Positions 1-13,199 of a stretch of 13,199 bases of DNA are shown here, one piece after another (positions within the stretch are counted from its first letter, which is position 1; each line of letters begins with the position of its first letter). Made by a program: the position numbers and the translations under genes. The stretch is taken from positions 1 through 13,199 of IMG/VR virus record IMGVR_UViG_651053023_000013; one strand, 5' to 3'. This DNA comes from a virus (lineage: Duplodnaviria > Heunggongvirae > Uroviricota > Caudoviricetes). The notes below the pieces were generated by a model that saw only the letters and a list, made by a program, of their open reading frames with translations, was not told the DNA's origin and did not search any database.

Positions 1-160
1 AGTTTGCTCCTGCCATAACGTGAAGAAGCAATGACCTGGTGGTCCGTGACTTCCCTACGCTGGCATTATCCAGATCAGGTGATACGGGTATTTCTTACTG
101 ATTTTTGTTATCAGTTGATAATTAATAAGTTTTTCAGCAAACAAGAATTAAAAACTTCAA

Positions 161-184
161 AACTGACCACACAACTGACCACAC
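161..184. repeat. Perfect tandem direct repeat AACTGACCACAC x2 in an A/C-rich non-coding stretch
   Basis: Read directly: aactgaccacac at 161-172 and again at 173-184; no coding context. Confidence 0.6.
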
Positions 185-408
185 ATTTTGTTGAAGCTCT
201 ACGAACAAAGACGAACAATAACAAACAAAAGGGAAATTTGCTGGCAGTTTTGCTTAACCGTTATCATTTTTCGGCTATCCGTTATCAAGCTGGTGGATGA
301 TCACGGATAACCCGTTATGGGAATCCCCATATCGGCATCATGCCCACCAGCATGAAGTATTTTTCGCGGATGTAAAAATTTGACGGGGCGGGCGGTCCCA
401 TAAGCAAT

Positions 409-440
409 GGGGGGGTAGGGATTCCGCTCCCCCCCCTCCC
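409..440. other. G7 ... C8 homopolymer pair able to form a GC-rich stem-loop; T5 run follows about 10 nt downstream
   Basis: ggggggg (409-415) - tagggattccgct - cccccccc (429-436) - tccc, then gaatgcaattttt. Possible plus-strand intrinsic terminator or slippage-prone tract. Confidence 0.35.
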
Positions 441-474
441 GAATGCAATTTTTCTTATATATATACAAAACAGT

Positions 475-627
475 GCGGGTTATGCGGGTTAGCGGGTTAT
501 CTTCGCGTGCTAAGTATTTTTTATTCTTTAATATCAATGCGTTAAAAAATGATATGTTTGAATATTAGCCAAAACGTAACCCGCAAGACATTCAAAATAA
601 CCCGCAAATACCCCCCAAATAACCCAC
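475..627. repeat. Origin-like iteron module A: three abutting GCGGGTTAT copies, AT-rich spacer, three inverted ATAACCC(G/A)C copies at 21-22 bp phasing
   Basis: Direct copies at 475-483, 484-491, 492-500; AT-rich 501-574; inverted copies at 577-584, 597-605, 619-627. Same 9-mer and mirror-image layout as module B at 9640-9771. Confidence 0.6.
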
Positions 628-915
628 AACCCCATCAGGAAAATGGGGCCAGTGATGCCACCGAACGGCTGAATCTGGTAACGTTCTGTTGCCTGGTTGC
701 AGTTTGCGGGTCAGCAATACTGACGCACAAAGTTAGCCGTATGTGGCTGTGCGTCCACCAGCTACGCCGGAATGGGGTATTCCGTTTCAACGGAACAGGT
801 ATGACGAATATGATCGCACCTTCTCCCGAAAACGGGTTTGCCTGTTTCGGGAAAACGGGCACATGAAGCTGCATAGACATTTTCACTATTCAGGATCTGG
901 CGGGGGAGTTTCTCA

Positions 916-1085
916 ATTTCCACCGTTGGTGGAAATTAAACGAATACAGCGAGTTAGGACAAGGTGACTAATGGTCACTCTGTTGCTGCGTCACCATATT
1001 GATGATCCAGCCCTGTAGTCGCGCCACTTTTCCACCAATGGTGGAAAAGCCCACAGCAGGCCGCCCAGCCTCCCCCAATGGGGGA
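916..1085. repeat. Cluster of perfect palindromes sharing CCACC/GGTGG-type half-sites (candidate protein-binding sites)
   Basis: ATTTCCACC-gtt-GGTGGAAAT (916-936); GTGAC-aatg-GTCAC (965-978); CTTTTCCACCA-a-TGGTGGAAAAG (1027-1049); TCCCCCA-a-TGGGGGA (1071-1085). All read directly. Confidence 0.6.
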
Positions 1086-1190
1086 TTGTGGAAGAATCAA
1101 CGGGTTAGGCCTTAATCATCTGCGTAATCATAAGTAATCATAATGTTCATTCATCCAGCGCAATTTTGCGTTATCGGGAATATCAGCAAG

Positions 1191-1475
1191 TTACCGCCGC
1201 AACCGCTCCGGCTTCTTCCAGTGGTAAGTTATTTTTTCCTTCTCCCGGTACATCTCCACGCGGCGACGATATGACAACAACTCCAGAACTCTGATCCGTA
1301 TGTCGCGCATATCCACGCCGTTAAGCTCAATACCGTCACGGCGCATCACCTCAGCCACCACACGCGCGTAATTTTCGGCTATCACGCTGTCCGGCTGCGT
1401 GGCCTCCTGTTTGCCTGCTTCCTGGCTGATTCCGGTAATGCGGCGGATTATTTTTAGTAGTTCGGTTTCGCTCAC
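1191..1475 (-). CDS. Hypothetical small basic protein (94 aa) immediately downstream of the large terminase
   Basis: ORF starts with GTG 5 nt after the terL stop, with only a weak GGGG upstream; basic C-terminus; no recognisable motif. Confidence 0.35.
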   Translation of the reverse strand: MSETELLKIIRRITGISQEAGKQEATQPDSVIAENYARVVAEVMRRDGIELNGVDMRDIRIRVLELLSYRRRVEMYREKEKITYHWKKPERLRR

Positions 1476-1480
1476 TCTCG

Positions 1481-3142
1481 TTATACCCCATCAAACGCCG
1501 CAAGCCGCTCTTTGTGGCTGTCGCTCATATCGAATGCAAATTCCTCATGTTCTGCCTGGAATGTGCCAAACGCCATCAGCGCCGCAACGCTCGGGTCTAT
1601 CTTGTTGGATGATTTTTTCTTGTTCGGCTTGATATTGGCGTTCGCGTCACTCTGCATCACAACATTACTCATTGACCAGGCCAGCACCGGATCGCCACGA
1701 TGCACAATCACCTTCCGGTTAACAAAAACTTCGAACGATTTCGCCGCCGGACTGAAACGAAGGTATGTTTGCGGGAACGGCTCCACCTCAAATCCTGCCC
1801 CCTGTAGCTGCGTCCTCAGGTGCGTGGCGTTCCATGTATCGAAGCCCACCAGCCTGATATTGAAATTCTCTGCATCCGCCATGATGTCATCACGGATACG
1901 GTCATAATCAATGCAGTCACCCGGTGTTGTGCGTATCCAGCCCGCCTTTACCCACTGGCGATAGATGGCGCGGTTTTTATTGGCGGGGTTCTGTAGCTGA
2001 AACTCCGGCAGATAGTGACGGGAAACCAGCATAATCTTTTTACCGACCGGAAAGGCATAGCACACGCTGGAAATATCGCTGGTTGATGATAAGTCCAGCC
2101 CCGCGTAGCACTCCTGCCCGTATAAATCCGCCTCCGCGAACGTTCCGGCGCACTCCGCCCATGCACCGTTACCCATCCACGGCGTGGCCCCCTGACACCA
2201 GATATTGAATCGCTTGGTGAGCATTTCCACCCACTGCGACGGAATACCCCGCGCTTTCTGGATGGTTGAGGCCAGTTTTTCACGATCGACGGAAACATCG
2301 ATATTGGGATTCGCCTTTATCCACATCGCCGGATCGTCAACCTCGCTTTCATCATCCAGCTCGTAAATCAGCACGAACATGGATTCGTTCACCTCTTCAC
2401 CATCCAGTATCTGGCAGCAATAGTCGTAGTGTTGTTTACAGGCTGAAACAACGTTGCTCCCCGATGTGGTGATGGCAAATAATAACCCCTCCGGACGCGC
2501 CCCCATTCCCAGTTCAAGCGCGGAATAAACCCCGTTGTCAGGGTGCAGGTGATATTCATCCACAATGGCAAGACTCGGGTTTGTACCTTCAATGGTTGCC
2601 GCTTTTGCTGCCAGTGGCTTTAACAGGCTGTTGGTTTTCGGGTGTATCACCTTGTGTGCCTGAATATTTACCCGCTTTCGCAACGGTCGGGATAAAAGGC
2701 ACATCTGACGCGCATCATCAAACACGATCCGCGCCTGATCACGACTCACGGCGGCGGTGTAAATATCCTGCTGCCCGTTTTCCATAACCAGAAACCAGTT
2801 AGCCAGGATAGCGGCGACCGTGGATTTGGCATTTTTTCGCGGCACTTCAATGAATGCGCTGGTGTATTTGCGCCGTCCGGTGGCCTTAACCTTAAAGCCC
2901 AGGATGCACGCAAAGGCGAACTGCTGCCACGGCTCCAGCTCAATGGGGCTACCGCGCATTGCGCCTTTTACGTGCGGACACACCCTGGAAAAGGCAATAA
3001 ACCGCTCCACGACCTCCGGATCGAACGTGTAAAGGGGGTTTTCAAGGTCAGAAAAATACCGTTTAACGGCCTGTTTCAGTCGTTTACAGGCCGTAATTTT
3101 GCCGTTTTTTACGCCTTCTGCGTACTCATGCCAGGCGGTCAA
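1481..3142 (-). CDS. terL: Terminase large subunit (HK97-type, Terminase_1-like ATPase/nuclease)
   Basis: 553-aa ORF with a P-loop-like VPRKNAKST and conserved acidic blocks (LAIVDEYH, VLIYELDDESEVDD). Apparent TTG start at 3140-3142, preceded by GAGGA at 5-nt spacing and overlapping the terS stop by 17 nt. Confidence 0.9.
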   Translation of the reverse strand: MTAWHEYAEGVKNGKITACKRLKQAVKRYFSDLENPLYTFDPEVVERFIAFSRVCPHVKGAMRGSPIELEPWQQFAFACILGFKVKATGRRKYTSAFIEVPRKNAKSTVAAILANWFLVMENGQQDIYTAAVSRDQARIVFDDARQMCLLSRPLRKRVNIQAHKVIHPKTNSLLKPLAAKAATIEGTNPSLAIVDEYHLHPDNGVYSALELGMGARPEGLLFAITTSGSNVVSACKQHYDYCCQILDGEEVNESMFVLIYELDDESEVDDPAMWIKANPNIDVSVDREKLASTIQKARGIPSQWVEMLTKRFNIWCQGATPWMGNGAWAECAGTFAEADLYGQECYAGLDLSSTSDISSVCYAFPVGKKIMLVSRHYLPEFQLQNPANKNRAIYRQWVKAGWIRTTPGDCIDYDRIRDDIMADAENFNIRLVGFDTWNATHLRTQLQGAGFEVEPFPQTYLRFSPAAKSFEVFVNRKVIVHRGDPVLAWSMSNVVMQSDANANIKPNKKKSSNKIDPSVAALMAFGTFQAEHEEFAFDMSDSHKERLAAFDGV

Positions 3143-3481
3143 GCTCGTCCTCTTCCTCTGTTTCCGGTGGATTTCTGCGGCGACTTACCGGGTCAAAACC
3201 CAGCAAAGAAGCCATTTTGATCATTATTCTTTCCGCGTCAGCCTTTGCGCTCAGGGCGGGGTTTCTGCTCTCGCTGCCCTGACTGTTAACAATGCTGAAC
3301 CCGCGCGTGGCAAGGTCTTCGACGGCTTTGCGGTATATGGAGTAGTTAACGCAATAAGCTCCAGATTGCTCCAGTCGGCGGGGGTAAGGTCTTCCCGTCC
3401 GGAAAGCTGGCGCGATTTTTCCTTCCACTGCCTGACCGCGATTTCATCCAGGTAAGCGGGGGCTTTTGGTGGTCTTGCCAT
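3126..3481 (-). CDS. terS: Terminase small subunit, P27-like family, split across two reading frames (apparent -1 frameshift near 3345-3365)
   Basis: N-terminal part (ATG at 3479-3481, MARPPKAPAYLDEIAVRQWKE...LTPADWSNLEL) is in one frame and stops at 3251. The family-typical C-terminal part (AYCVNYSIYRKAVEDLATRG...MASLLGFDPVSRRRNPPETEEEDELDRLA) is in the adjacent frame and ends at 3126 overlapping terL. No slippery heptamer at the junction. Confidence 0.6.
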
Positions 3482-3599
3482 GTTCTTTTTTCGCCCAATT
3501 ATTTTCAAAAAAAATCCCGTGCACAAAAATTTGAGGAGGCGGTCGGTGTCCGGCAGGGACGGTTTGTCCTGAAAACCTCCCCCACCCCCTCTGACAGCC

Positions 3600-3785
3600 T
3601 CACCAGCGATTGCGAAAACATTCCATGACCTCGCGGTCACGGTCGGTTAATTGCTTCGCTGTGGTGCGTTCTGTGCGCCCTGTCCTGTTGGCTTTGTGCC
3701 CTGTCTCCTGTGTCTTCCATAAGTCACGCTGCCTTATCAGTCCACGTATCAGCCTGTTTTGCTCCTGTTCAGTCATCATCGCCAT
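3600..3785 (-). CDS. Hypothetical small basic protein (61 aa) between HNH and terS
   Basis: ATG at 3783-3785, 9 nt after the HNH stop; weak ribosome-binding site; no recognisable motif. Confidence 0.3.
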   Translation of the reverse strand: MAMMTEQEQNRLIRGLIRQRDLWKTQETGHKANRTGRTERTTAKQLTDRDREVMECFRNRW

Positions 3786-3796
3786 ACATCCAGTCG

Positions 3797-4210
3797 TTAC
3801 GGTGTGCCGCCCGTTCTTCCTGCTCGCGATACATGACCCGCCTTACGGTTCGCTTTCGTGGCTGGATCTTCCCGTGTCGTCTTACGGTTGTGGCACGTCT
3901 GGCACAATGCCTGGTGATTCCACTCAGGCCAGAAGAGAACATCACCGCCGCCATTGATGGGAATGATGTGATCCACCACAAGAGCTGGCGTATAAATCCC
4001 CTTAGCCAGACAACGCACGCATAACGGGTTTTTGCTCAGGTACAGGGCGCGGTATTTGTCCCACTGTCGGGAATACCCGCGCGCGCGGCGGTGTCCCCGT
4101 CTGGCATCCTCTGCACGCCATGCAGCCCGCCTGTGCTCTTCACACTTTCCGGACTTCACGCGCTTATTACAGCCCGGCTCAGTGCAGCGCCTTAATGGTT
4201 GCCACGGCAT
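3797..4210 (-). CDS. HNH endonuclease (packaging-associated)
   Basis: N-terminal Cys cluster CTEPGCNKRVKSGKCEEH, then HNH core VVDHIIPINGGGD ... WNHQALCQTCHNRKT. ATG at 4208-4210 overlaps the adaptor stop (ATGA). Confidence 0.9.
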   Translation of the reverse strand: MPWQPLRRCTEPGCNKRVKSGKCEEHRRAAWRAEDARRGHRRARGYSRQWDKYRALYLSKNPLCVRCLAKGIYTPALVVDHIIPINGGGDVLFWPEWNHQALCQTCHNRKTTREDPATKANRKAGHVSRAGRTGGTP

Positions 4211-4509
4211 CAGTACACCCCCACATCACGATAAACCGACCAGAGCGCAGAAATAGCCATAGGCAGTTCAGACTGCTCCACAGGTGAAACCGCTTCCCTG
4301 TTCTCGTACAGGAAAGCGATGTACATCAGGCAACCAACACGTATTGCCGGGGTAAATTCCAGCCCGTCTTCAAAACGTTTCCCGATATGCTTCTGGCAGG
4401 CTTCCAGCGCCGCATCGGTATACATTTTCAGAAGTTCGCCTTCTCCGGAAAAGTCATCAAGGCGAAGATGTGCCCTGACTTCATCAGGTGTAATTTTGTC
4501 TTCACTCAT
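4210..4509 (-). CDS. Head-tail adaptor/connector protein (HK97 gp6-like)
   Basis: MSEDKITPDEVRAHLRLDD...AIRVGCLMYIAFLYENRE matches the gp6-like pattern. ATG at 4507-4509 has an AGGTG Shine-Dalgarno and overlaps the portal stop by 8 nt. The tracked ORF start at 4596 is a GTG lying 95 nt inside the portal gene and is rejected. Confidence 0.7.
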   Translation of the reverse strand: MSEDKITPDEVRAHLRLDDFSGEGELLKMYTDAALEACQKHIGKRFEDGLEFTPAIRVGCLMYIAFLYENREAVSPVEQSELPMAISALWSVYRDVGVY

Positions 4510-5716
4510 CTTTTTCACCTTTAATTTCCACAGTCTGCTTCCATGCCTGGCTGAACTCGTCGCCACCTTCACGCGGCGGCATTCCCTCACGCTCACGGGC
4601 TTCGTTCGGATTCATGATCCCGTTCTTAATCCCTTTCTCATACGTGGCGTAACGTTCAGTAGGTGTGGCGCGCAGTAAATCGGCTGAATCAAACTCAACC
4701 AGATAACGGGTACCAGGTACGGGAGAAGCCACCAGCAAAGCGGCCTTGATTTGCTGTTCGAAGTTCGCCAGCCACGGACGCATTGTCATAGTCAGAAACG
4801 CGCGGCTTGCCTCACTGAAATTGCTGTAGGTGCTGTTGCTGTATTCCTGCAGAAAAATCGGCGACACGTTGAACATCCGGGCGATGTCTTCAATGGAGAA
4901 GCGACGGGAGGCCAGCCATTCCGCATCCTGGTTACTCATCCCCAGTTGCTTGTAATCCATGCCCCCTTCAAGGATTGGCGTTTTTCCGGCATTTTTCGCC
5001 CCCTTGTAGCGTTCCAGTGCGTCTAATGCCTGTTTACCTTTCACGCCGTCCAGCCATTCGCCTGACGTGATAATCCCTGCCGCCATCATGCCATCTTTCA
5101 TAATGCTGGCTCCGTGACGCTGTTGAGCAAGGCCAAGCCCCAGCGCCTCACGGCAAATCGTGATGGGGGAGCGTCCCAGAAAGCCATCATCCGAGGCATA
5201 GCGGAGATGCAGAACTTCTTCCTGTAAATACGTGCGCACCGTTCCTGTACAGGGTTCGGTGATGGTATAGCGGTATTTGTGTGCGCCTGTGCGTTCCGGT
5301 ACAACACACCCCGGCGCATAAGGATGAAGTGATTTTGGCTGACCGTCCCGCCCCCATTCAATAACCGCATAGGCGTTACCGTTCAGCAGGCAGTGACGCA
5401 TCATTGTGCGTTTAAACTGGTAAGGTGTCTGGCACGAATTAGGCTGCTCATTCAGCAGAATATCTACCGGATGACTGTCCAGCCATTCCCGCGCCTCCCT
5501 GCCCTTGTCATTACGTACCAGATACAGATAACACGGCATCGTGGCCACCGCCTCAGCGATGACGGAAACCGCGTTCATCACTGCGGGCAATGATTCAGCC
5601 GTCCCGGCAGAAACATATTCTCCGGATCCGGTATTCGGTACGCCGGACAGCACCAGAAAATCATCAATGGACAGGTTACGTTGCTCGCTTTTTTTACGAC
5701 TAAAAGGCCACCACAT
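4502..5716 (-). CDS. Portal protein (HK97 family)
   Basis: About 405 aa from ATG at 5714-5716 (MWWPFSRKK...), which follows the protease stop by one base (TGA-T-ATG). The longer tracked ORF begins at a TTG inside the protease gene. Confidence 0.85.
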   Translation of the reverse strand: MWWPFSRKKSEQRNLSIDDFLVLSGVPNTGSGEYVSAGTAESLPAVMNAVSVIAEAVATMPCYLYLVRNDKGREAREWLDSHPVDILLNEQPNSCQTPYQFKRTMMRHCLLNGNAYAVIEWGRDGQPKSLHPYAPGCVVPERTGAHKYRYTITEPCTGTVRTYLQEEVLHLRYASDDGFLGRSPITICREALGLGLAQQRHGASIMKDGMMAAGIITSGEWLDGVKGKQALDALERYKGAKNAGKTPILEGGMDYKQLGMSNQDAEWLASRRFSIEDIARMFNVSPIFLQEYSNSTYSNFSEASRAFLTMTMRPWLANFEQQIKAALLVASPVPGTRYLVEFDSADLLRATPTERYATYEKGIKNGIMNPNEAREREGMPPREGGDEFSQAWKQTVEIKGEKDE

Positions 5717-5717
5717 A

Positions 5718-6278
5718 TCACAACCCCGCCAGCTCTGCCCAGCGATGACGATTATTTCCTGCCGGGCGTAATTCAGGGTGCTGTGCAAACAACGAACGGT
5801 GGGCAATCTCCACGCCAGATTCGGGATAAGCAGGCATCGACGTGATCGTGATTTCCCTGAGTTCTGCAGCGGTAACAGTACGCAGATACGGTTTTTGCGC
5901 GATATTCCACTCTTCGCATAATGCGCGAAAGCCAAAGCTCATCCCTGTAATGTCGCCACGCTCCACCAGCGTAAGCACATCTTTTCCAAGCTGGGTATCA
6001 GGCGGTGTCAGTTCAAAACGTAGCCCGGTGTTGTCCTCAGTCAGTACCAGAGTGCCGGATTTGGTGCGCCCCAGCAGTTGGGTATAGTCATGCTCATACA
6101 GGCAGCGCACATCATTACCCGCCGCCAGATAGTCAGCAAAAGCCCCCGGCGTGAACTGTTCGCGGAATTCGTCCCAGATAATTTCTGAAAGGCTGTTCCA
6201 GCGAACGGCATACCCCACCAGCTTTTTATTGCTGGCGGTCAGTTCAGATGTGCGGATTTCAAAATCGGTGTTTTTCAT
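5718..6278 (-). CDS. Prohead maturation protease (HK97 family, S78/U35-like)
   Basis: 186 aa, placed between capsid and portal; typical HK97 protease length and sequence character. ATG at 6276-6278. Confidence 0.85.
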   Translation of the reverse strand: MKNTDFEIRTSELTASNKKLVGYAVRWNSLSEIIWDEFREQFTPGAFADYLAAGNDVRCLYEHDYTQLLGRTKSGTLVLTEDNTGLRFELTPPDTQLGKDVLTLVERGDITGMSFGFRALCEEWNIAQKPYLRTVTAAELREITITSMPAYPESGVEIAHRSLFAQHPELRPAGNNRHRWAELAGL

Positions 6279-6332
6279 CGGTGTACTCCATAAAGCTGAA
6301 AAAGGAGGCCGCAGCCTCCTCCTTACTCATGA

Positions 6333-7502
6333 CTAGCCAGCTTTCATTTCCAGAATTTTGATGGCGTTTGAATCCACCACACCACCGCCCAGATATTTAT
6401 CCGTGTGGACCTTGTAGAATCCGGGTTCAGTAATGTTGTCCGGTCGGGTGCGAATCCCTGTTACATGATCAACGATGAAATAACCACGACTGAAATCGCC
6501 AACCGCTAGCGGTGCTTTTCCTGCGCCGATGTCCGGCATGGACTCCAGGCAGAAAACAGGACGACCAAGCAACATATCCGGCGCACCTTCTTTAAGGCTG
6601 TCGCGCCAGATATAATCGCCATTCTCATTTTTCAGCTTCTGTAGTGTCCCTGCCGTGCCCGAGTTCATCACCCAGACGGCATTTTTGCGGTATTTCGCTT
6701 TCAGCTTGTAGAGAATGTCGATCAGTTCGTCCGCTGTAATGGCGGTTCCACTTGCCGCTACCACTTTTTCAATGGTGCCAAAAGCGCGGGTTTTGTCACT
6801 GGTCGCCGCACGGGTGTAAGCCATGAAGCCTTTCGGCTTGCCGTTACCGTCGCCATTAACAAAATCATCCTCTTCGGTGCTGGCGAACGTGTCGGCAATT
6901 TCGGAGGATAACCAGCCCAAAATATCCACCTCTGAAAAATCCAGGATTTCCTGCGTGGTTTTCGGGTAGGCGTAGATCTGATTCAGCTTGATGGTTACAC
7001 GTTCAATTTTCGGGGTGTTGGTTTCACTACGTGCGCTGCCTTCTGTGCCTCGTCCTACAGTTGCGCCGCCAGTGGAAACCAGTTTCTGAAACTCATTTGA
7101 TTTTGCGGTCTTCACGGTCGCGATCACGCGCATAACACTGTCATCCTGTAGCTGGCGCATGACTTCGCGATCAAGCTCAGGAATTACGGTATATCCGCCA
7201 TCCCTGCCGCTGTCAGTGCTGGTGGACAGTGATCGCACATCTCCGGTTACGATGTAGTTACGCAATTCATCAGATGATAATTTCTGGATGCCCGTTCCTG
7301 GCTTGCTGCGTTCTTCATCAGCCACAGACTCGAGGCGGTAAATTTCTGTGTCGAGGGAATCGGCTTTTGCACGCAGTTCATCAAACTGTTTGCCCTCGTC
7401 ATCGTTCAGGCTGCGGTTTTCACTGTCGGCTTTTTCCAGCAGGGATCGCATCTGGTTTTTCAGGGCGGTTTTTTGCTGGCGGAGTTCGATTAATTTCTTC
7501 AT
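6333..7502 (-). CDS. Major capsid protein (HK97 fold) with N-terminal coiled-coil delta/scaffold domain
   Basis: 389 aa; N-terminal heptad-rich region (MKKLIELRQQKTALKNQMRSLLEKADSENRSL...) followed by an HK97-type capsid body. ATG at 7500-7502. Confidence 0.9.
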   Translation of the reverse strand: MKKLIELRQQKTALKNQMRSLLEKADSENRSLNDDEGKQFDELRAKADSLDTEIYRLESVADEERSKPGTGIQKLSSDELRNYIVTGDVRSLSTSTDSGRDGGYTVIPELDREVMRQLQDDSVMRVIATVKTAKSNEFQKLVSTGGATVGRGTEGSARSETNTPKIERVTIKLNQIYAYPKTTQEILDFSEVDILGWLSSEIADTFASTEEDDFVNGDGNGKPKGFMAYTRAATSDKTRAFGTIEKVVAASGTAITADELIDILYKLKAKYRKNAVWVMNSGTAGTLQKLKNENGDYIWRDSLKEGAPDMLLGRPVFCLESMPDIGAGKAPLAVGDFSRGYFIVDHVTGIRTRPDNITEPGFYKVHTDKYLGGGVVDSNAIKILEMKAG

Positions 7503-7572
7503 GAAGGTTTTCTCGTATTGGTTAAGATTCAGGACGTGAAACCAACACGGAGGGAGCGCCGCCCGACACTCT

Positions 7573-7621
7573 CGGCATCTCGCAGATCAACCCGGCATCG
7601 CGCAGGGGGTCAGGCGGCATT
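7573..7621. promoter_or_regulatory. Three direct CGGCAT(C) repeats at 20-22 bp phasing upstream of the capsid operon (candidate activator sites for a late promoter)
   Basis: cggcatctcgcag (7573-7585), cggcatcgcgcag (7593-7605), cggcatt (7615-7621), in a GC-rich block 70-120 bp upstream of the capsid ATG. No good sigma70 -35/-10 lies between the block and the ATG. Confidence 0.35.
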
Positions 7622-7726
7622 GTGGCGGCTCACGTCTGAGTGCCACACGCCAACATATACATAAAAATCAGTATGTAAACATCAGCCAGAATCACCGAAC
7701 AACCTGGAACAACCACGAACAAATAA

Positions 7727-7757
7727 TTTACAAAACCTGAAAAAAATGGCCTATTAT
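7727..7757 (+). promoter_or_regulatory. Putative sigma70 promoter of the AT-rich accessory gene
   Basis: TTTACA (7727-7732), 19-bp spacer, TATTAT (7752-7757); AGGA ribosome-binding site 6 nt before the ATG at 7789. Spacer is longer than optimal. Confidence 0.3.
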
Positions 7758-7788
7758 TGCTACCTCTGACTACAACAAAGGACGCATC

Positions 7789-8295
7789 ATGAATTTAAGC
7801 GCAATGGTATACCCTGATACTTTCATAATTAATGGCGAATCATTTAAAGGTAAAAGAAACGCAAAAGAAAACAAGGTATTAATTCCATATACAAATGAAC
7901 CGGAAGTAACTATTGGTCAACACATTATCCAGTGTGTCGGTAAAAACGAGATAAATCTAAAAATTATAGATATGAAGTTGCTTCCCAATGGAACCCTCAG
8001 ACAGGGAACCAACCATCCAAATATGTTGACGCTCTATATTGAAAATATCACGGGAAATGAACATATGACGCCACCTAAAAGTAATACATTTAACATTGGT
8101 TCAATTAGTGGTAATCAAGTGCAGATAGGTGAGCATAACCATATGCTGGTAAACATCAGCATCACTGAACTGGTTGAAAAAGTCTCTAAATCGGGGGATG
8201 TACAAGCCAAATCAGTATTAAAGCAGTTACTGGAAAACAGTACCGTTGCCAGCATTGTTGGGGCTGGCGCAAGTGCCTTAATAGGCTTACTGTAA
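7789..8295 (+). CDS. Unrecognised 168-aa protein with C-terminal hydrophobic glycine-zipper segment; AT-rich accessory gene (moron)
   Basis: Only credible plus-strand gene inside the island. Roughly one-third GC by eye against about half in neighbouring genes. Own promoter, ribosome-binding site and terminator. C-terminal ...NSTVASIVGAGASALIGLL is a likely membrane anchor. Internal NIGSISGNQVQIGEHNH is not assignable from memory. Confidence 0.7.
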   Translation: MNLSAMVYPDTFIINGESFKGKRNAKENKVLIPYTNEPEVTIGQHIIQCVGKNEINLKIIDMKLLPNGTLRQGTNHPNMLTLYIENITGNEHMTPPKSNTFNIGSISGNQVQIGEHNHMLVNISITELVEKVSKSGDVQAKSVLKQLLENSTVASIVGAGASALIGLL

Positions 8296-8303
8296 AAAAA
8301 TGA

Positions 8304-8320
8304 CCTGGAGAAAATCCAGG
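8304..8320. terminator. Bidirectional intrinsic terminator between convergent genes
   Basis: Stem CCTGGA (8304-8309), loop gaaaa, stem TCCAGG (8315-8320). On the minus strand it is followed by T7 (complement of A7 at 8294-8300); on the plus strand by an interrupted T-rich run. Confidence 0.5.
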
Positions 8321-8331
8321 CCTTTATCGCT

Positions 8332-8580
8332 TTATTGTTTCACTGGATCCCGCATTCTGCGTCTTATTTTCCACAGATATTCGATCATCGCTTCCACCTG
8401 CTCACGATTGGTTGCGAAAATTTCCCCGGTCAGTGAGCTGCGCAGAAAATCATGATGATCCACAACAAACAACGCATCGGAAGAAAGCAGACGGCGATAT
8501 TTTTTTGCTGTCGTGGTTTCCAGATCATCAAAACCATGAAACTTTTTATGTTGCTGGACTTCTTCAAATGTCACTGGCAT
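8332..8580 (-). CDS. Hypothetical protein (82 aa), translationally coupled to the ProQ/FinO-like gene
   Basis: ATG at 8578-8580 overlaps the stop of the upstream ORF by 10 nt; no recognisable motif. Confidence 0.45.
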   Translation of the reverse strand: MPVTFEEVQQHKKFHGFDDLETTTAKKYRRLLSSDALFVVDHHDFLRSSLTGEIFATNREQVEAMIEYLWKIRRRMRDPVKQ

Positions 8581-9113
8581 GTATCCCCCTTTGCTGCCCG
8601 GCGCTGGCGCTTGTGCTTCTCATTCAGCGCCATCAGCCGCGTTTCTGCCTCCTGCTGTTCCTGTGGTGTCACTTCCCCACATGGCTGGCCTTTCAGGTCG
8701 TATCGTACCCCACCAGCAACCAGGGCGCGGTAATAGCGCGGAGACTGCGCATAAGATGCCAGCGTCGCACGTAATGCCCCCGGCCCGAATGCCAGCCCCC
8801 TGACGGCGAGATCCTGCATCAGGTCGTCGAATATCCCCACCTTAAGCGGCTTCGGTGCTTCCCTGTTGAATAAGTCAGGCCACATCTCAGTGAGGCGGTT
8901 AACGCGCCTGCGGTTTTTGCGCTGGCGTTTGGTCATATGCCGCCACGGTGTCACCCCTGTGGGCTGCCCTTTGCGGCTCTGCTGTGCGTTCTGATTGCCG
9001 GGTATCACTTTATGCGCCGATGTGGTTTTATCCCGCTCTTGCGCCGCCTGCGTCGTTTTCTGCGGCGTGCCGTAAATGCCTTTCGGTTTTCGGTTAATGG
9101 TCAGCTTTGTCAT
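8571..9113 (-). CDS. ProQ/FinO-domain RNA-binding protein with an N-terminal basic, Q-rich extension of about 75 aa
   Basis: PLKVGIFDDLMQDL...LRATLASYAQSPRYYRALVAGGVRYDLKGQPCGEVTPQEQQEAETRL aligns by eye to the N-terminal FinO domain of E. coli ProQ (PLKIGIFQDL...LRSALRLYTSSWRYLYGV...[24 protein letters not shown]). ATG at 9111-9113 with a GGGGAAGG ribosome-binding site. Confidence 0.75.
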   Translation of the reverse strand: MTKLTINRKPKGIYGTPQKTTQAAQERDKTTSAHKVIPGNQNAQQSRKGQPTGVTPWRHMTKRQRKNRRRVNRLTEMWPDLFNREAPKPLKVGIFDDLMQDLAVRGLAFGPGALRATLASYAQSPRYYRALVAGGVRYDLKGQPCGEVTPQEQQEAETRLMALNEKHKRQRRAAKGDTCQ

Positions 9114-9149
9114 GCCTTCCCCTGTAATTACTCTGTTCGCTGTTGTGAA

Positions 9150-9575
9150 TTAAAACGGTATGTTATCCCCGTACAGGTCATCGTGCTGGCCTGTCTGTTG
9201 TTTTGCCCTGTTCAGTGCGTCAGTGGCCTGCCCCTGTTGGCCTTTTTTGCCGCCCGGTCGCGCCGTTCTCGCACTGATTACGCTGTCTGCGATGACCTGC
9301 CAGCCCTGCCGCGTTTCGCCGTTCTGCCCTGTCCACTGGCTTACCTGCATGTTACCCGCCACGTTCACCAGTTCGCCTTTGCGGTGTTTTGCCAGTGCGT
9401 CGGCCTGTCTGCCAAACGCCAGGACGGATAACCACATCGTCGCCGTTCCGTCATCTGCCTGGCTGCATGGCAGGGGAACCGCCATACTCGCCATCGCCAT
9501 TTGTGTTCCCTTGCTGGTGGTCTTTAACTGCGGGTCAGCCACCAGCCGCCCGTAAGCCGCTATCTGTGCTGTCAT
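9150..9575 (-). CDS. ssb: Single-stranded DNA-binding protein (short, divergent SSB)
   Basis: 141 aa; OB-fold-like N-terminal pattern (GRLVADPQL ... WLSVLAFGRQADALAKHRKGELVNVAGNMQVSQWTGQNGETRQGWQVIADSV), Gly/Gln-rich linker and acidic tail ending DDLYGDNIPF (compare DDDIPF in E. coli SSB). Confidence 0.75.
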   Translation of the reverse strand: MTAQIAAYGRLVADPQLKTTSKGTQMAMASMAVPLPCSQADDGTATMWLSVLAFGRQADALAKHRKGELVNVAGNMQVSQWTGQNGETRQGWQVIADSVISARTARPGGKKGQQGQATDALNRAKQQTGQHDDLYGDNIPF

Positions 9576-9639
9576 GCTGTCTGCTCTCCGGTTTTAACGT
9601 TGATGGTTACGCTTGTTTACACCCTTACGGTGAAATTCT

Positions 9640-9771
9640 GCGGGTTATAATCGCACTTTTGCGGGTTATAACTGCCGTTTTGCGGGTTACGTGCGGGTTA
9701 TTGATTTCCTTTTTATTCATACAGTTAATGCACTTATATACATGATAACCCGCATAACCCGCATAACCCGC
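9640..9771. repeat. Origin-like iteron module B: four GCGGGTTA(T/C) copies at 21/21/11 bp phasing, AT-rich spacer, three abutting ATAACCCGC copies; immediately downstream of the primase-helicase gene
   Basis: Direct copies at 9640-9648, 9661-9669, 9682-9690, 9693-9701; AT-rich 9702-9744; inverted copies at 9745-9753, 9754-9762, 9763-9771. The primase stop is at 9795-9797. Confidence 0.7.
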
Positions 9772-9794
9772 AACTTTTCACCTCACACAGGGGG

Positions 9795-11918
9795 TTAATC
9801 TTCTGCCTCAGGCTGGAACATCAGCACGTAAAAAACATGCTGCTTCCCCCCAATTTTGCCGAGCGCCTTTTTCTTGTAACGGCGATCGTTACCCGCTTCC
9901 AGCATTCCGGCAGCACTCAACGCGCGGGCAAAGTGAGACGGATTAAATCCCTGTGCTATCTCACCCTCAAATACATGCGGGAACGTGTAAAAACGGAACT
10001 CGTCATCTTCGTTTCTGATACTCCCCTTTCTGTATCCGGCAAGCTCTTTAATCGGTAAATCACGCTCGTCGGTGTTGGGCCACGGAAGGTATCTGCTGAA
10101 TCCGAACGACGCTAAAAAAGCCTCTGCCTGTTCAACCATCTGTTTAAACTCCCTGTTACCCGTGCCGAACTCCTTCACCCAGGCATTAAAATTATGCTGA
10201 ATGGCATCGCGGCACGCCTGAACATCCCAACCAGTAATATGGACGGAAAGCACCAGCGCCGACTCCAGCATGGCGAATCGTTCCCCCACACGGTGAACCT
10301 GTTCGCCGTAACTCTCCGGTATCAGGTTGCGCCACCGTTCACGGCATGCCCTTACCGTATCCTTTGCCTCCTGCTGGTGGTCTGCCAGCCATTTAACCCA
10401 TTCACGCCCCGCCGCCCCGTGATTTTCTGTCCAGGCATCCTTTAACGCGTCTGCGTGTGCCTTTCCGGTGCTGTATTCGTGAAACTGCGTGGCTTTTTCC
10501 ATTGGCACGTTAAGCAGGCGGACAAGCTGCCCCGCCTTGACTTTTATCCCCTCCGTTTTGAGGAATGTCTCAACGTCCATTTCTCCGGTGCTGATTGCCA
10601 CCGTGCGCCAGTGTTTGATCTCCCTGTTGCCGCCGTCCTTCGCCCCCTGTAATTTCCCCGAACCGTTAAACAGCGTATAAGCCGACGTGGACACTTCCCG
10701 CGCGTTTCCGGCCTGACCTATTTCATCCAGGGGTAATAGCCCGTCATTGTGCGCCTCTGCCTCGTTGGCGATGCCTAACGCTGTACCGTACCAGGTCAGC
10801 CGTTGCGCGTCCGGCTCTCCCCATAAACTGGATGCGATGTTCTGTGTGGTGGTTTTCCCTGCCGATGACTGTTCGAAAAGATGTACCCCGAAGCCGTCAG
10901 CACCCACCAGCCCGATTAATGGTGCGGATAACGATACCGCCACACCCAGCATCATGGACGGATTACCACCAGCCAGCCGCGCAACGATATCGCGCCAGCC
11001 CTCCGCCGTTCCTGCCACGGAATAGCCATTAACAGCAGCCGTTTTTCCGGTAAACAGGACTGGCTTTTCGCAATCACCAATGACCGAACCGTCCGGCATG
11101 ATGTACGCGCCAAAATGCCAGCCCGTTGTTGTGCTTAACTGCCATTCCTCATGGCTTCCGCTTAACTGCATCCAGTCAGCCAGGATAGCCCTGTATTTAC
11201 CGTTGGTTGTTACGTTCAGTCCGTGGTCTTTCAGCAACCGCCAGCCGTCACGGTCGCCAATGCCACCGCACGGAACCGCCATTGTGATGACTTCATGGTT
11301 TGCTAATTTTTTCCAGCGCATCACGCGGTAATGCTCTTTACCGATTGTCCCCGTTCCCAGTAGTTCAAGCGGGGAACATAACCACGTCTCAGGCCGGATA
11401 ATTTCGCCTGACTGCTTATCCACTTTTGGCGTTACCCAGAAAACACCATCGGCGCGACTTTCAACGCGGGGCTTTAATTCATCATCGCCCTGGATTTCTG
11501 TGATTTTTTTCTTTAAGGGCAACACCAGACTTTCCCCGCGCTCGTATTCGTCTTTGAGGCGAGGCAACTGGTCGGATAAATCCGCCGGGCTGATGTCAGT
11601 TATCCCCGCGTATTCGTATACGGTCTTCACGCCAGCCACAGCCAGCAACGTGACGATCTGTGTAAGGCTACGTTCAGTGATGTGCCCTGCGCGGTAAACA
11701 CGCACACACTGACGGCTATCATCAATAATTTGATAACCGGTAATATCTTTCAGGTGTTCATCTGACAGAACGACAGGCGGCACATTGTCGGCGGCAATAT
11801 GCTTACCTGCCCATTCCTGCCACTCTTTCGCATGGCTCCACGCATCACTACCCGCAAAGATGATAACCTCCGTCATTTTGTCGGCTGGCTGGTGCTTTAA
11901 GTTTGGTGCGCGCTTCAT
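9795..11918 (-). CDS. Replication initiator: Toprim-like primase N-terminus plus DUF927/SF3-type helicase-like domain
   Basis: 707 aa; P-loop FEQSSAGKTTTQNIASSLWG and Walker B-like LLPLDEIGQAG; N-terminal region resembles a Toprim primase fold. ATG at 11916-11918 overlaps the upstream stop (ATGA). The iteron module follows directly. Confidence 0.8.
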   Translation of the reverse strand: MKRAPNLKHQPADKMTEVIIFAGSDAWSHAKEWQEWAGKHIAADNVPPVVLSDEHLKDITGYQIIDDSRQCVRVYRAGHITERSLTQIVTLLAVAGVKTVYEYAGITDISPADLSDQLPRLKDEYERGESLVLPLKKKITEIQGDDELKPRVESRADGVFWVTPKVDKQSGEIIRPETWLCSPLELLGTGTIGKEHYRVMRWKKLANHEVITMAVPCGGIGDRDGWRLLKDHGLNVTTNGKYRAILADWMQLSGSHEEWQLSTTTGWHFGAYIMPDGSVIGDCEKPVLFTGKTAAVNGYSVAGTAEGWRDIVARLAGGNPSMMLGVAVSLSAPLIGLVGADGFGVHLFEQSSAGKTTTQNIASSLWGEPDAQRLTWYGTALGIANEAEAHNDGLLPLDEIGQAGNAREVSTSAYTLFNGSGKLQGAKDGGNREIKHWRTVAISTGEMDVETFLKTEGIKVKAGQLVRLLNVPMEKATQFHEYSTGKAHADALKDAWTENHGAAGREWVKWLADHQQEAKDTVRACRERWRNLIPESYGEQVHRVGERFAMLESALVLSVHITGWDVQACRDAIQHNFNAWVKEFGTGNREFKQMVEQAEAFLASFGFSRYLPWPNTDERDLPIKELAGYRKGSIRNEDDEFRFYTFPHVFEGEIAQGFNPSHFARALSAAGMLEAGNDRRYKKKALGKIGGKQHVFYVLMFQPEAED

Positions 11919-12229
11919 TTTGCCTTTCCCCGTTCACGAATAATTTCACGTACTGCCTTAATGCGTTCCATTCCTGTAACGCGCATGATTCTGTCGATGT
12001 CGCTTAATTCTGCTGGTGGTGCTTTACTTACCAAGGTGAACTCCCTGTCAAAGCGCATATGTGACGACACGCAGGGATGCGCATAACCTTCGCGGATATA
12101 GGTCACACGAAAATCATCGACGGTTTTGATCGTTATCGTGCTGCCGTATTTATCCTGGAAAATATCGCCGGGGCGGATTTCAGGCCGAGCGGGGCCGCTG
12201 GCAGTAAAGCCAGAATTTTTCTTTTTCAT
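11915..12229 (-). CDS. Hypothetical protein (104 aa), translationally coupled to the primase-helicase
   Basis: ATG at 12227-12229 with GGAG at 8-nt spacing; stop overlaps the primase start; no recognisable motif. Confidence 0.5.
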   Translation of the reverse strand: MKKKNSGFTASGPARPEIRPGDIFQDKYGSTITIKTVDDFRVTYIREGYAHPCVSSHMRFDREFTLVSKAPPAELSDIDRIMRVTGMERIKAVREIIRERGKAK

Positions 12230-12234
12230 GTTTT

Positions 12235-12453
12235 TTACTCCAGAGGCAGCTTTTTAGCGGCGAGCTCAATATCAGATGTCAGAGAAACCTGTGTATTTGC
12301 CAGGTCTAACAACAAAGAAATAAGAATTTCTTCTCTGCTATCGGATTTATCGGTGCTAAGGCTGTTCATCCACATATTGACGACTTCCCTGATTTTTTTC
12401 GCAGAGTGCAGGGCTTCAAATGCCAGGTCTTCAATATCATGTTTATTTCGCAT
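12235..12453 (-). CDS. Hypothetical small protein (about 72 aa)
   Basis: Preferred ATG at 12451-12453 (MRNKHDIEDL...) with a GGGGG ribosome-binding site, overlapping the upstream stop by 11 nt. The tracked ORF start at 12483 is TTG. Confidence 0.4.
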   Translation of the reverse strand: MRNKHDIEDLAFEALHSAKKIREVVNMWMNSLSTDKSDSREEILISLLLDLANTQVSLTSDIELAAKKLPLE

Positions 12454-12805
12454 AATCGCCCCCGCCATTTTCACAATCAGCAATCAGGATGGCTTTTGCC
12501 TCATTCAGCGCCATATCAGCACTAAATTGCATAACAGCCAGTGAGTGAGGAACGAAAGCCCCGGCATATTCTGTTTCGCTGGTGGCCTCAATGGTAATCA
12601 CACGCGGTTGTGCCGTGCTCAGGGCGATAAAACGCCAGATGTATTTATTCAGGTTGTGCAAGTCCCGCCCTTGCGGGTGTGTGGTATGATTTAACATAGC
12701 TACCTCGATAATCTTGCTATCGTTGGTGGTTAGAAGCCCGGTTAGTGTTAGCGCACTGCCGGGTTTCGTCGTTTGTATTTCAATAAAACCATTGGTGTGT
12801 TTCAT
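12443..12805 (-). CDS. Hypothetical protein, first gene of the replication-side operon (120 aa from ATG 12805; alternative start 12697 gives 84 aa)
   Basis: ATG at 12803-12805 sits inside an operator-like inverted repeat and has no Shine-Dalgarno. An internal ATG at 12695-12697 has a GAGGT ribosome-binding site. The tracked extension to 13186 is Ser/Thr-rich and antisense to the plus-strand regulator. Confidence 0.45.
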   Translation of the reverse strand: MKHTNGFIEIQTTKPGSALTLTGLLTTNDSKIIEVAMLNHTTHPQGRDLHNLNKYIWRFIALSTAQPRVITIEATSETEYAGAFVPHSLAVMQFSADMALNEAKAILIADCENGGGDYAK

Positions 12806-12875
12806 GTTATTTTGGAGTGAAACACACGTCAAGCCTTTTTTGTATTTCTTTTTTGTGTATACTGAAACACACCAA
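12792..12875. promoter_or_regulatory. Divergent control region with three copies of TGAAACACAC (one inverted, two direct) and a -10-like TATACT
   Basis: GTGTGTTTCA (12795-12804, overlapping the minus-strand ATG), TGAAACACAC (12818-12827) and TGAAACACACCAA (12863-12875). The first and third share 13 bp in opposite orientation. TATACT at 12858-12863. Confidence 0.5.
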
Positions 12876-12893
12876 ATTTGAGGAGTTTCAGTT

Positions 12894-13199
12894 ATGGCGA
12901 CTACCAACAAAAACGCTAAATCACAATTGACCACCGTCAGAGTCCCCCACGATGTTATGGAGGGCATGGAATCCGTAAAACTGGACGGCGAAAGCAACGC
13001 CGGATTCATAGTAACCGCCATGCGCGGTGAGATCGCCCGCCGCCAGGCAGAAGGAAGCGGAGAAAATCCCCTGGTTTCTTCGCTCGATGCACTGGCGCAG
13101 GTGGAAAAAATTGGAGTCAAGGCTGCCGAGGAGATCGGGCAACTCGTCGCCGTCGCGCGTGAAGAACTCCAGCGCCGCAAGGCCAAAGAATCAGAATAA
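12894..13199 (+). CDS. Putative ribbon-helix-helix-type DNA-binding regulator (101 aa), divergent from the replication operon
   Basis: Strong ribosome-binding site GAGGAG (12880-12885), 8 nt before the ATG. N-terminus LTTVRVPHDVMEGMESVKL...NAGFIVTAMRGEIARRQ fits a beta-strand/helix/helix pattern; helical C-terminal extension. Fold assignment is by pattern only. Confidence 0.45.
   Translation: MATTNKNAKSQLTTVRVPHDVMEGMESVKLDGESNAGFIVTAMRGEIARRQAEGSGENPLVSSLDALAQVEKIGVKAAEEIGQLVAVAREELQRRKAKESE

Follow-up and report, generated by a model that had tools for sequence, protein, structure and literature searches.

The window analysed here, that is, the whole stretch of 13,199 nucleotides forming positions 1 to 13,199 of the IMG/VR virus record IMGVR_UViG_651053023_000013, is Escherichia coli DNA, and segments of it recur in almost all complete E. 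coli genomes. It carries a single block of minus-strand genes running from about 12805 to 1191, and two genes face the opposite way, one for a YlcI/YnfO-family protein and one for an accessory protein of 168 aa. Positions 82-13199 very probably make up most of a capsid-forming phage-inducible chromosomal island (cf-PICI) of the EcCIEDL933/Sp7 family, integrated between thiM and rcnR, with a full island of about 16 kb. The gene content and order, the att core with its junction, the iterons and the homology to the experimentally characterised EcCIEDL933, on which this assignment is built, were observed directly. Domain calls were made by profile searches of the window proteins against Pfam, PHROGs and NCBIfam; PADLOC served for defence models and Rfam for RNA families. 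Comparisons were made with 50,697 phage records and 5,426 complete E. coli genomes, and the features expected of a cf-PICI were taken from Alqurainy et al. 2022 and from the cfPICI model of SatelliteFinder (PMC10085698). Related loci are designated by L numbers.

The head and packaging genes stand in the order capsid, protease, portal, adaptor, HNH, TerS and TerL, all on the minus strand, and this list, proposed earlier by a model from the letters without database searches (the sequence-only reading), is borne out by Pfam, PHROGs and NCBIfam. The direction from capsid to terminase is, as that reading had noted, the reverse of the usual phage order, and the order capsid, protease, portal is kept across the clade. 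The major capsid protein (6333..7502, 389 aa; PF05065 Phage_capsid 7.5e-72, TIGR01554 6.5e-102) has the HK97 fold with an N-terminal delta domain. Its best match among solved structures (E 9.7e-154) is 9GYI, the T=4 capsid of EcCIEDL933, whose N-terminal part is cleaved off at residue 93. The delta domain claimed by the sequence-only reading is plausible in that the Pfam domain does not begin until residue 102, the first 100 residues can be aligned with the cleaved N-terminal part of the EcCIEDL933 capsid, and the cleavage context around L92/S93 is conserved in the alignment with 9GYI. The capsid gene is followed by those for an S78 HK97-type prohead serine protease (5718..6278, 186 aa; PF04586 5.3e-46) and the portal protein (4502..5716, 404 aa; PF04860 4.6e-93).

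The gp6-like head-tail adaptor Ad1 (4210..4509, 99 aa) was recognised by phrog_40 (1e-27) and TIGR01560 (1.1e-19), with Pfam Phage_connect_1 at 20.0 bits falling below its cutoff. It is 59% identical to the adaptor of L004 and 33% identical to that of the prophage hosting the L001 sister island, the portal of which is 32.8% identical to the one encoded here. Ad1 is the only head-completion gene: its start is overlapped by the portal gene by 8 bp, and the HNH gene begins at its last base. A head-closure gene (PF05521-type, Hc1) encoding 112-113 aa is present in L004 (6077-6708 region), Sp7, vB_KppS-Ant and Pmp8 and absent from the window and most sister islands. SatelliteFinder (PMC10085698) recognises 11 core cf-PICI components, including a connector, and designates elements with 10 of the 11 as 'Type B', the commonest class; the head-closure-less lineage would be such a 10-of-11 'Type B' element. 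The head-completion locus has been reported to set tail compatibility (EcCIEDL933 capsid-structure work), and the missing gene bears on how this compatibility gets set.

The packaging set comprises the HNH endonuclease (3797..4210; PF01844 1e-09), a 61-aa open reading frame (ORF; 3600..3785; phrog_3173 2.3e-28) that is 80% identical to the corresponding Sp7 region, the P27-family small terminase TerS (3126..3482) and the large terminase TerL (1481..3142, 553 aa; TerL_ATPase 4.3e-26, TerL_nuclease 1.8e-52). By position, that is, by synteny only, the 61-aa ORF corresponds to 'hypothetical gene 1792' of EcCIEDL933. A terS gene is present as predicted, but its reading frame is broken in two by the loss of 1 bp at about 3356, and the Terminase_4 match (2.6e-16) covers the C-terminal frame only. 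The spacer between the 61-aa ORF and terS (3483-3599) contains a G-rich non-coding motif, GGGGGTGGGGGAGGTTTTCAGGAC (3566..3589, minus strand), which has been kept in elements ranging from those of E. coli to Pmp8 of Pasteurella. It forms the very end of the linear virion-derived record vB_KppS-Ant, the other end of which lies 22 bp upstream of terS. The motif is a candidate cos site, and it is in this sense that we infer the position of cos in this island.

Upstream in the same gene block lies the replication module. The replication initiator-helicase ('pri-rep'; 9795..11918, minus strand, 707 aa) belongs to the DUF927 family (PF06048 5.9e-46, phrog_1139 7.7e-173), and among solved structures it is related to a staphylococcal 'pathogenicity island protein' (8tch, 8.8e-14) and to the Cch helicase 5dgk. 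It had been described as a Toprim/DUF927 primase-helicase, of which the DUF927 part stands and the other does not: Pfam and NCBIfam gave no Toprim or primase domain at E<=0.01, and the match to the 'DNA primase' PHROG profile, 895 positions long, is confined to its positions 285-894. The single-stranded DNA-binding protein gene (SSB; 9150..9575, minus strand, 141 aa; PF00436 7.9e-16) encodes a protein 68% identical to the SSB of Sp7, and the iterons foreseen next to the primase-helicase gene do lie between the SSB and DUF927 genes. With at most one mismatch, the iteron TGCGGGTTA occurs 16 times in the window, as against 3.2 +/- 1.9 expected, and none of 200 shuffles reached 16. The rep-proximal origin (9636..9772, with copies at 9639-9772) consists of four iterons on the plus strand and three on the minus strand around a spacer of 76% A+T; copy number varies here, L015 having one 9-bp unit fewer. 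A second origin-like site, the distal cluster (434..633), contains three TGCGGGTTA-type iterons at 474-499 (plus strand) and three at 577-628 (minus strand) around a spacer of 73% A+T. The two clusters, about 9 kb apart, thus share the same anatomy of inverted iteron sets flanking an A+T-rich spacer. The distal one is 88-92% conserved with its 3+3 layout in all sister islands, in which it is the sole distal non-coding piece kept, and it aligns at 80% with an iteron cluster beside the rep gene in Sp7. The latter island has the same iteron and carries the homologous clusters side by side, whereas in the window one of them lies at the far island end instead of beside rep. In satellite P4, ori and crr likewise form two separated clusters of the same initiator-binding iteron, with no sequence relationship to this island.

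The left boundary of the island falls inside the window. Positions 1..95 (minus strand) are the chromosomal 5' leader of thiM, that is, the 3' half of the thiM riboswitch for thiamine pyrophosphate (TPP), and are not island DNA except for the shared core; position 1 directly abuts the thiM start codon. The 14-bp att core AGAAATACCCGTAT (82..95, minus strand) forms the terL-side island end, and the native thiM leader stops at 95. Window 40-95 was found in about 5,400 of the 5,426 genomes, where it is annotated 'riboswitch', and about 5,300 genomes match this segment only; beyond position 95 the match continues in only 75, which carry an element with this arm at the thiM site. The 14-mer AGAAATACCCGTAT occurs once in the window and at both ends of the complete islands L008, L014, L015 and L023, 15.2-15.6 kb apart. 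The sequence-only reading had put both island ends outside the window, which is right for the right end and wrong for the terL-side end. Similarly, the 1190 bp that follow the single 94-aa ORF (1191-1475) after terL contain no convincing gene, as stated, but this '1.2 kb of non-coding DNA' is really made up of 95 chromosomal bp and some 1.1 kb belonging to the island, the latter with an att arm, the second iteron cluster and three palindromes. The att arm of the thiM type (96..433) contains short direct and inverted repeats that are candidate integrase arm sites, namely CTGACCACA twice at 158-181 and the CCGTTATCA family at 248-312. It was found only in thiM-site elements (L002, L008, L014, L015), the islands in prophage terL genes carrying a different arm, and a repeat of about 70 bp with CTGACCACA recurs beside int at the other end of L008 and L002.

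The att core lies inside the TPP aptamer of thiM, and the two halves score 31.7 and 20.3 bits with the Rfam TPP model, against a gathering score of 54.3. In the relatives, the corresponding sites are at L015 2858-2953 and L008 17814-17827. At the gathering threshold Rfam gave no match in the window; the relaxed search returned the sub-threshold TPP hit of the split riboswitch and a chance-level 'drum' hit. Only the 3' half of the TPP hit in the window is native: the island supplies a hairpin followed by UAAGA in place of the native P3 stem and CUGAGA, and the resulting hybrid (window 1-126) is the one at 31.7 bits, below the 54.3-bit threshold. By integration, thiMD are left with the 3' half of the aptamer, the promoter and the 5' half are placed about 15.5 kb away beside int, and thiMD come to lie downstream of and co-directional with the island late genes. 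From what is known of the thiM switch, one would expect the loss of TPP control of thiMD. A literature search for thiM as a PICI attachment site returned nothing relevant, and the window contains no tRNA or tmRNA gene as an integration target.

The right side of the island was followed in its closest relatives. L015 is 99.87% identical to the window over 1-7746 and 99.68% over the last 625 bp; in it the island extends about 2.8 kb beyond the right edge of the window, where genes for a 64-aa protein, AlpA, a 239-aa protein and a tyrosine integrase of 406 aa are followed by a second core and rcnR. This 406-aa integrase stands next to rcnR in both L015 and L014, which are 99.7-99.9% identical to the flanking parts of the window, and AlpA, likewise beyond the window, is a 74-aa PF05930 gene in L008, L014, L015 and L023. 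The sequence-only reading had proposed looking beyond the window for an integrase and att repeats, and alpA, int and the second core were in this way met with in L015. Because the relatives measure 15.2-15.6 kb, to which this copy adds a 548-bp accessory insertion and from which it lacks 175 bp by deletion, its own size comes to about 16 kb; a cf-PICI is expected to be a discrete, att-bounded island of some 14-16 kb, with which these sizes agree.

Two tests had been set beforehand for the view that the element is a cf-PICI, one on contiguous tail or lysis genes and the other on the nesting of its head proteins, and the view survives both and is supported. Pfam, PHROGs and NCBIfam detected no tail, lysis or integrase genes in the window, in agreement with the sequence-only reading, nor are there tail, holin or lysis genes between the att cores of the complete relatives; to the left the element ends at thiM, and to the right L015 has only the genes named above before rcnR. 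The head proteins go with those of satellites: matches above 60% to capsid or TerL are mostly to records of 10.7-16.5 kb, true phages reaching about 37%. In the phage set, capsid and TerL homologues of 60-83% identity occur only in vB_KppS-Ant (16.5 kb), Pmp8 (15.3 kb), Pmp7 (10.7 kb), a 3.8-kb fragment and one 106-kb record, and all other phages stay at <=37% for both proteins. Other kinds of element fit less well. Classical PICIs, for which portal, head-tail and terL genes are forbidden components in the SatelliteFinder model (PMC10085698), lack capsid, portal, adaptor and terL, all of which are present here, and remodel or redirect helper capsids. The classical Gram-negative PICIs EcCICFT073 and EcCIED1a do share the int, alpA, rep layout, AlpA-dependent induction and iteron origins, and the left part can be identical between classical PICIs and cf-PICIs (cf-PICI paper). 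No family corresponding to the P4 marker genes (sid, psu, delta, alpha-type primase) was among the Pfam, PHROGs or NCBIfam results for the window.

EcCIEDL933 is equivalent to Sp7 of E. coli O157:H7 Sakai and is the prototype cf-PICI, with 15.5 kb compared with about 16 kb here. The order in Sp7 is int, rep, SSB, PerC, capsid, protease, portal, head-closure, adaptor, HNH, small ORF, TerS, TerL, 93-aa ORF, about 850 bp of non-coding DNA and att, so that from rep through the small ORF after terL, and in the long non-coding tail before att, the window follows the same order. Identities to Sp7 are highest in the packaging genes (TerL 93%, TerS 88% with an intact relative used, HNH 88%), followed by Rep (82%, the Sp7 protein being named 'primase'), the portal (80.6%) and the 94-aa protein (77%), and lower for the capsid and protease (63% each) and Ad1 (57%). 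In addition to the missing head-closure gene and the frameshifted terS, the window differs from Sp7 by a ProQ/FinO gene in place of the PerC-family PchE, by the extra 168-aa gene, and by its integrase and att site (thiM riboswitch here, roxA-phoQ in Sp7). vB_KppS-Ant (LR881103.1), deposited as an induced prophage, has the same head and packaging order (TerL 83%, portal 87.7%, protease 85%, capsid 75% identical) and the G-rich motif upstream of terS, but possesses a head-closure gene besides that of the adaptor, a distinct replication protein of smaller size and a large extra gene after terL, and has no TGCGGGTTA clusters. Pmp8 (OR544139) from Pasteurella, with its companion Pmp7 (OR544138), extends the comparison to another bacterial family. 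Its order is capsid, protease, portal, head-closure, adaptor, HNH, TerS and TerL, the capsid and TerL of the Pasteurella elements are 61% and 70% identical to those of the window, and the motif upstream of terS is conserved; Pmp8 differs in having the head-closure gene and in its regulatory and replication genes. The 106-kb record, PQ569648.1 (Klebsiella phage P12620-1), contains its TerL (83%) and capsid (76%) homologues about 11 kb apart (90984-103419), which suggests a cf-PICI embedded in, or co-assembled with, a phage record.

Helper induction, self-made small capsids, exclusive self-packaging and dependence on helper tails were demonstrated for EcCIEDL933 only. In that element, transfer depended on all of the packaging-module genes that had been mutated (terS, terL and HNH among them) apart from gene 1792, the loss of which severely reduced it, and tail genes of the helper were also needed. 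By homology, the present island would go through the following cycle. A helper phage would switch on AlpA, encoded just outside the window, and the tyrosine integrase would excise the island at the 14-bp core inside the thiM riboswitch. The DUF927 Rep helicase would bind the TGCGGGTTA iterons and, together with the island SSB, replicate the circle, after which the long minus-strand gene block would be expressed. Portal, delta-domain capsid protein and S78 protease would build a small, probably T=4 prohead, from which the protease would remove the delta domain, probably after L92. TerS, TerL and HNH would recognise and cut the island's own cos (candidate 3566-3589, just upstream of terS), with one unit-length genome per head; Ad1 would cap the portal, and attachment of tails from a siphovirus helper would yield an infective particle.

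Several points weigh against the cf-PICI assignment. The capsid is only 63% identical to that of the characterised prototype, and the head-closure gene, one of the 11 core cf-PICI components, is missing in this lineage. The genes for integrase and AlpA and the second att copy lie outside the window and are presumed to be there from the relatives; induction, capsid size and tail dependence are likewise transferred from EcCIEDL933. Furthermore, the frameshifted terS, the altered HNH tail and the fusion of an Icd-like gene raise the question of function, and this copy may be inert. It could be a cf-PICI by descent that has become an immobilised, decaying remnant, in which packaging initiation is lost and no further spread takes place, an alternative that concerns only the functional part of the cf-PICI assignment and leaves the family untouched; we consider it a serious one, a little short of an even chance. 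The damage is concentrated. In terS, the 1-bp deletion at about 3356 sets this copy apart from every relative examined, all of which encode an uninterrupted 118-aa protein; a second 1-bp deletion, at 3565 and again peculiar to this copy among all relatives examined, directly adjoins the candidate cos motif; and in HNH the last 21 or so residues are changed through the insertion of one base at about 3836, with the HNH motif left intact in a protein of 137 aa here versus 146 aa in the relatives. These three indels lie within 480 bp, outside any homopolymer run, the one further 1-bp indel being in a poly-C run at 436; the chance that three points placed at random in 13,199 bp would all fall within 480 bp is, by a rough estimate, ~0.004. 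A further lesion is the loss of 175 bp at 12575-12586, a segment of 12 bp that can be aligned on either side of the gap; this deletion fuses, in frame, the Icd-like gene to the next, 81-aa gene of the regulatory region. As terS and HNH are each essential for the transfer of EcCIEDL933, this copy, in its sequenced form, can probably not carry out its own packaging. Decay is also seen elsewhere, SSB being frameshifted in L001, HNH split in L005 and terS not called in L017. On the other hand, all other genes are full length, and the high share of indels relative to L015 (six substitutions and four 1-bp indels over window 1-7746, L015 having neither the accessory gene nor the indels) could also result from a local assembly error. 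The concentrated damage in the region of terS, the candidate cos and HNH may be an example of the way in which islands of this kind come to be fixed in the chromosome.

The two remaining alternatives concern the nature of the element itself. HK97 and HK97-like lambdoid prophages share with the window the HK97-fold delta-domain capsid, the S78 protease, the portal, the gp6-type adaptor and the cos-type set of HNH, P27-TerS and TerL, and sister copies of the island adjoin genes of such prophages, so that one might think of a defective HK97-like prophage stripped of its tail, lysis and immunity modules. This is, however, highly improbable and already contradicted by the evidence on architecture, identity, gene order and replication: contiguous tail, lysis and immunity modules are absent from the window and the complete relatives; the same att-bounded architecture of about 15 kb recurs at four or more att sites, the integrase modules being exchangeable and 42% identical to each other; from true phages, among them the prophage hosting the L001 sister, the capsid, TerL and portal are far removed, with identities of only 33-37%; the order capsid, protease, portal is conserved in the clade and reversed in HK97-like phages; replication relies on a PICI-type Rep with iterons; and records of 15-16.5 kb with the same layout have been deposited as whole phage genomes, one labelled 'induced prophage'. 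The capsid is moreover presumed to be T=4, as solved for EcCIEDL933, and not T=7 as in HK97-like phages. A gene transfer agent (GTA)-like or domesticated capsid module that packages host DNA might be suggested by the second-best solved match of the capsid protein, 6tb9 of the Rhodobacter capsulatus GTA (E 2.5e-56), but it is hardly credible for an element that has an integrase and att sites of its own, a Rep with an origin and a packaging set of TerS, HNH and cos type, that is mobile between sites and genomes, and whose prototype EcCIEDL933 packages only itself. We thus retain the cf-PICI assignment. The element belongs to a family that has been described before, of which it is an ordinary if diverged representative; its interest lies in secondary features and not in the class of element. 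cf-PICIs are a common and recently recognised gene-transfer route in enterobacteria, and their correct recognition from raw sequence is useful annotation, not a discovery. The testable points of value are the lack of a head-closure gene, the two iteron clusters, the riboswitch att site, the sister islands that interrupt a prophage terminase and the concentrated damage.

Capsid genes with at least 95% identity (>=95%) are found in 107 of the 5,426 E. coli genomes and the wider capsid family in 530, and the island core is combined with several integrase/att modules: at the thiM riboswitch (window, L008, L014, L015, L023), at roxA-phoQ (Sp7, L021) and next to fadL (L016). Among the places shown, the commonest site is inside the large-terminase gene of HK97-like prophages. 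Sister islands with head and packaging genes 98-99% identical to those of the window interrupt terL of HK97/P27-type lambdoid prophages at the codons N-F-F-T-K (L001 11038-27852; L020 1930-3123 and 17560-18344; L024 551-2308), and their integrases are 42% identical to the thiM type. The terL attB in an intact prophage is GTGAATTTTTTTACCAAACACATG, with a junction core of about 10 bp, TT(T/C)TTACCAA, and excision of these sisters would restore a TerL ORF of 586 aa. The interrupted terL junction was found in 35 of the 5,426 genomes, and in about 240 others the match to the junction query is limited to its terL-derived part; there are assemblies in which a single ORF of 807 aa is called across the 5' part of terL and the island int. 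In the literature we found no paper on a cf-PICI inside a prophage terL. A tentative and rather unlikely idea is that the lineage favours att sites within working genetic elements that are broken by insertion and restored by precise excision. If this were true and regulated, the satellite would be a reversible switch acting on thiamine salvage of the host and on the packaging ability of a resident phage able to supply tails. A second part of the idea is that both iteron clusters, separated by 9 kb, might work together as a two-site origin comparable to ori/crr of P4.

The thiM site is also used by a capsid-less element of 7.6 kb in L002 (9001-16716), which has the same att core and arm, shares window 1-933 at 91% and encodes int, an HTH regulator, an Icd-like protein, PerC and a homologue of the 94-aa protein; AGAAATACCCGTAT stands at both its ends, 7.6 kb apart.

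The remaining ORFs and control regions are partly conserved and partly exchangeable. The 94-aa ORF after terL (1191..1475, minus strand; phrog_1561 5.3e-50) corresponds to ECs_1599 of Sp7 (77% identical, same position) and is absent from the terL-integrated sisters. The three palindromes beyond it (917..1085), TTTCCACCGTTGGTGGAAA at 917, TTTCCACCAATGGTGGAAA at 1029 and TCCCCCAATGGGGGA at 1071, have the form TCC(A/C)CC-NN-(T/G)GG(T/G)GGA; they are common to L008 and absent from Sp7 and the terL-integrated sisters. The opposite-strand accessory gene (7789..8295, plus strand, 168 aa) is part of a 548-bp segment (7747-8294) that is absent from L001, L014, L015 and Sp7 and thus represents an insertion; with about 42% GC, this stretch differs from the neighbouring island DNA (51-57%), and a terminator-like hairpin (8302-8322) follows the gene. 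The encoded protein has a hydrophobic, glycine-rich C-terminus and a match to phrog_5789 only; Pfam, NCBIfam and PADLOC gave none, no large-database homology search having been made. The exact protein is indexed in 822 collection blocks and occupies the island slot in all eight places shown (8/8). A single-sequence AlphaFold model was discarded for its mean pLDDT of 43.6.

Between the accessory gene and SSB, an 82-aa ORF (8332..8580, minus strand; phrog_1957 1.6e-36) is conserved in all relatives, and a ProQ/FinO-family RNA-binding protein of 180 aa (8571..9113, minus strand; PF04352 9.2e-25) is encoded in a swappable slot after SSB, which in L003-L010 and Sp7 holds a PerC/PchE-family gene. 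PADLOC models assigned none of the other small ORFs to a defence system, and a scan for sigma-70 promoters was uninformative, with 4 sites found versus 13 expected.

Upstream of the replication gene follow a DUF4222 protein of 104 aa (11915..12229, minus strand; PF13973 3.4e-18), a 72-aa ORF (12235..12453, minus strand; weak phrog_2196 match) called as a 72-aa gene in relatives as well, and the fusion ORF of 120 aa (12443..12805, minus strand; NCBIfam phage_ICD_like 2.3e-06), which joins the Icd-like N-terminus to the C-terminus of the 81-aa gene and is replaced in L015 and L001 by two separate genes with 175 more bases. The Icd-like gene and the gene for the YlcI/YnfO-family protein (12894..13199, plus strand, 101 aa; NCBIfam YlcI_YnfO_N 3.6e-19, phrog_6522 2.6e-62) are divergent, and the region between them (12792..12892) contains perfect 13-nt inverted repeats at 12792-12804 and 12863-12875 together with a promoter-like site; this 88-bp divergent region is likely an operator and control switch.

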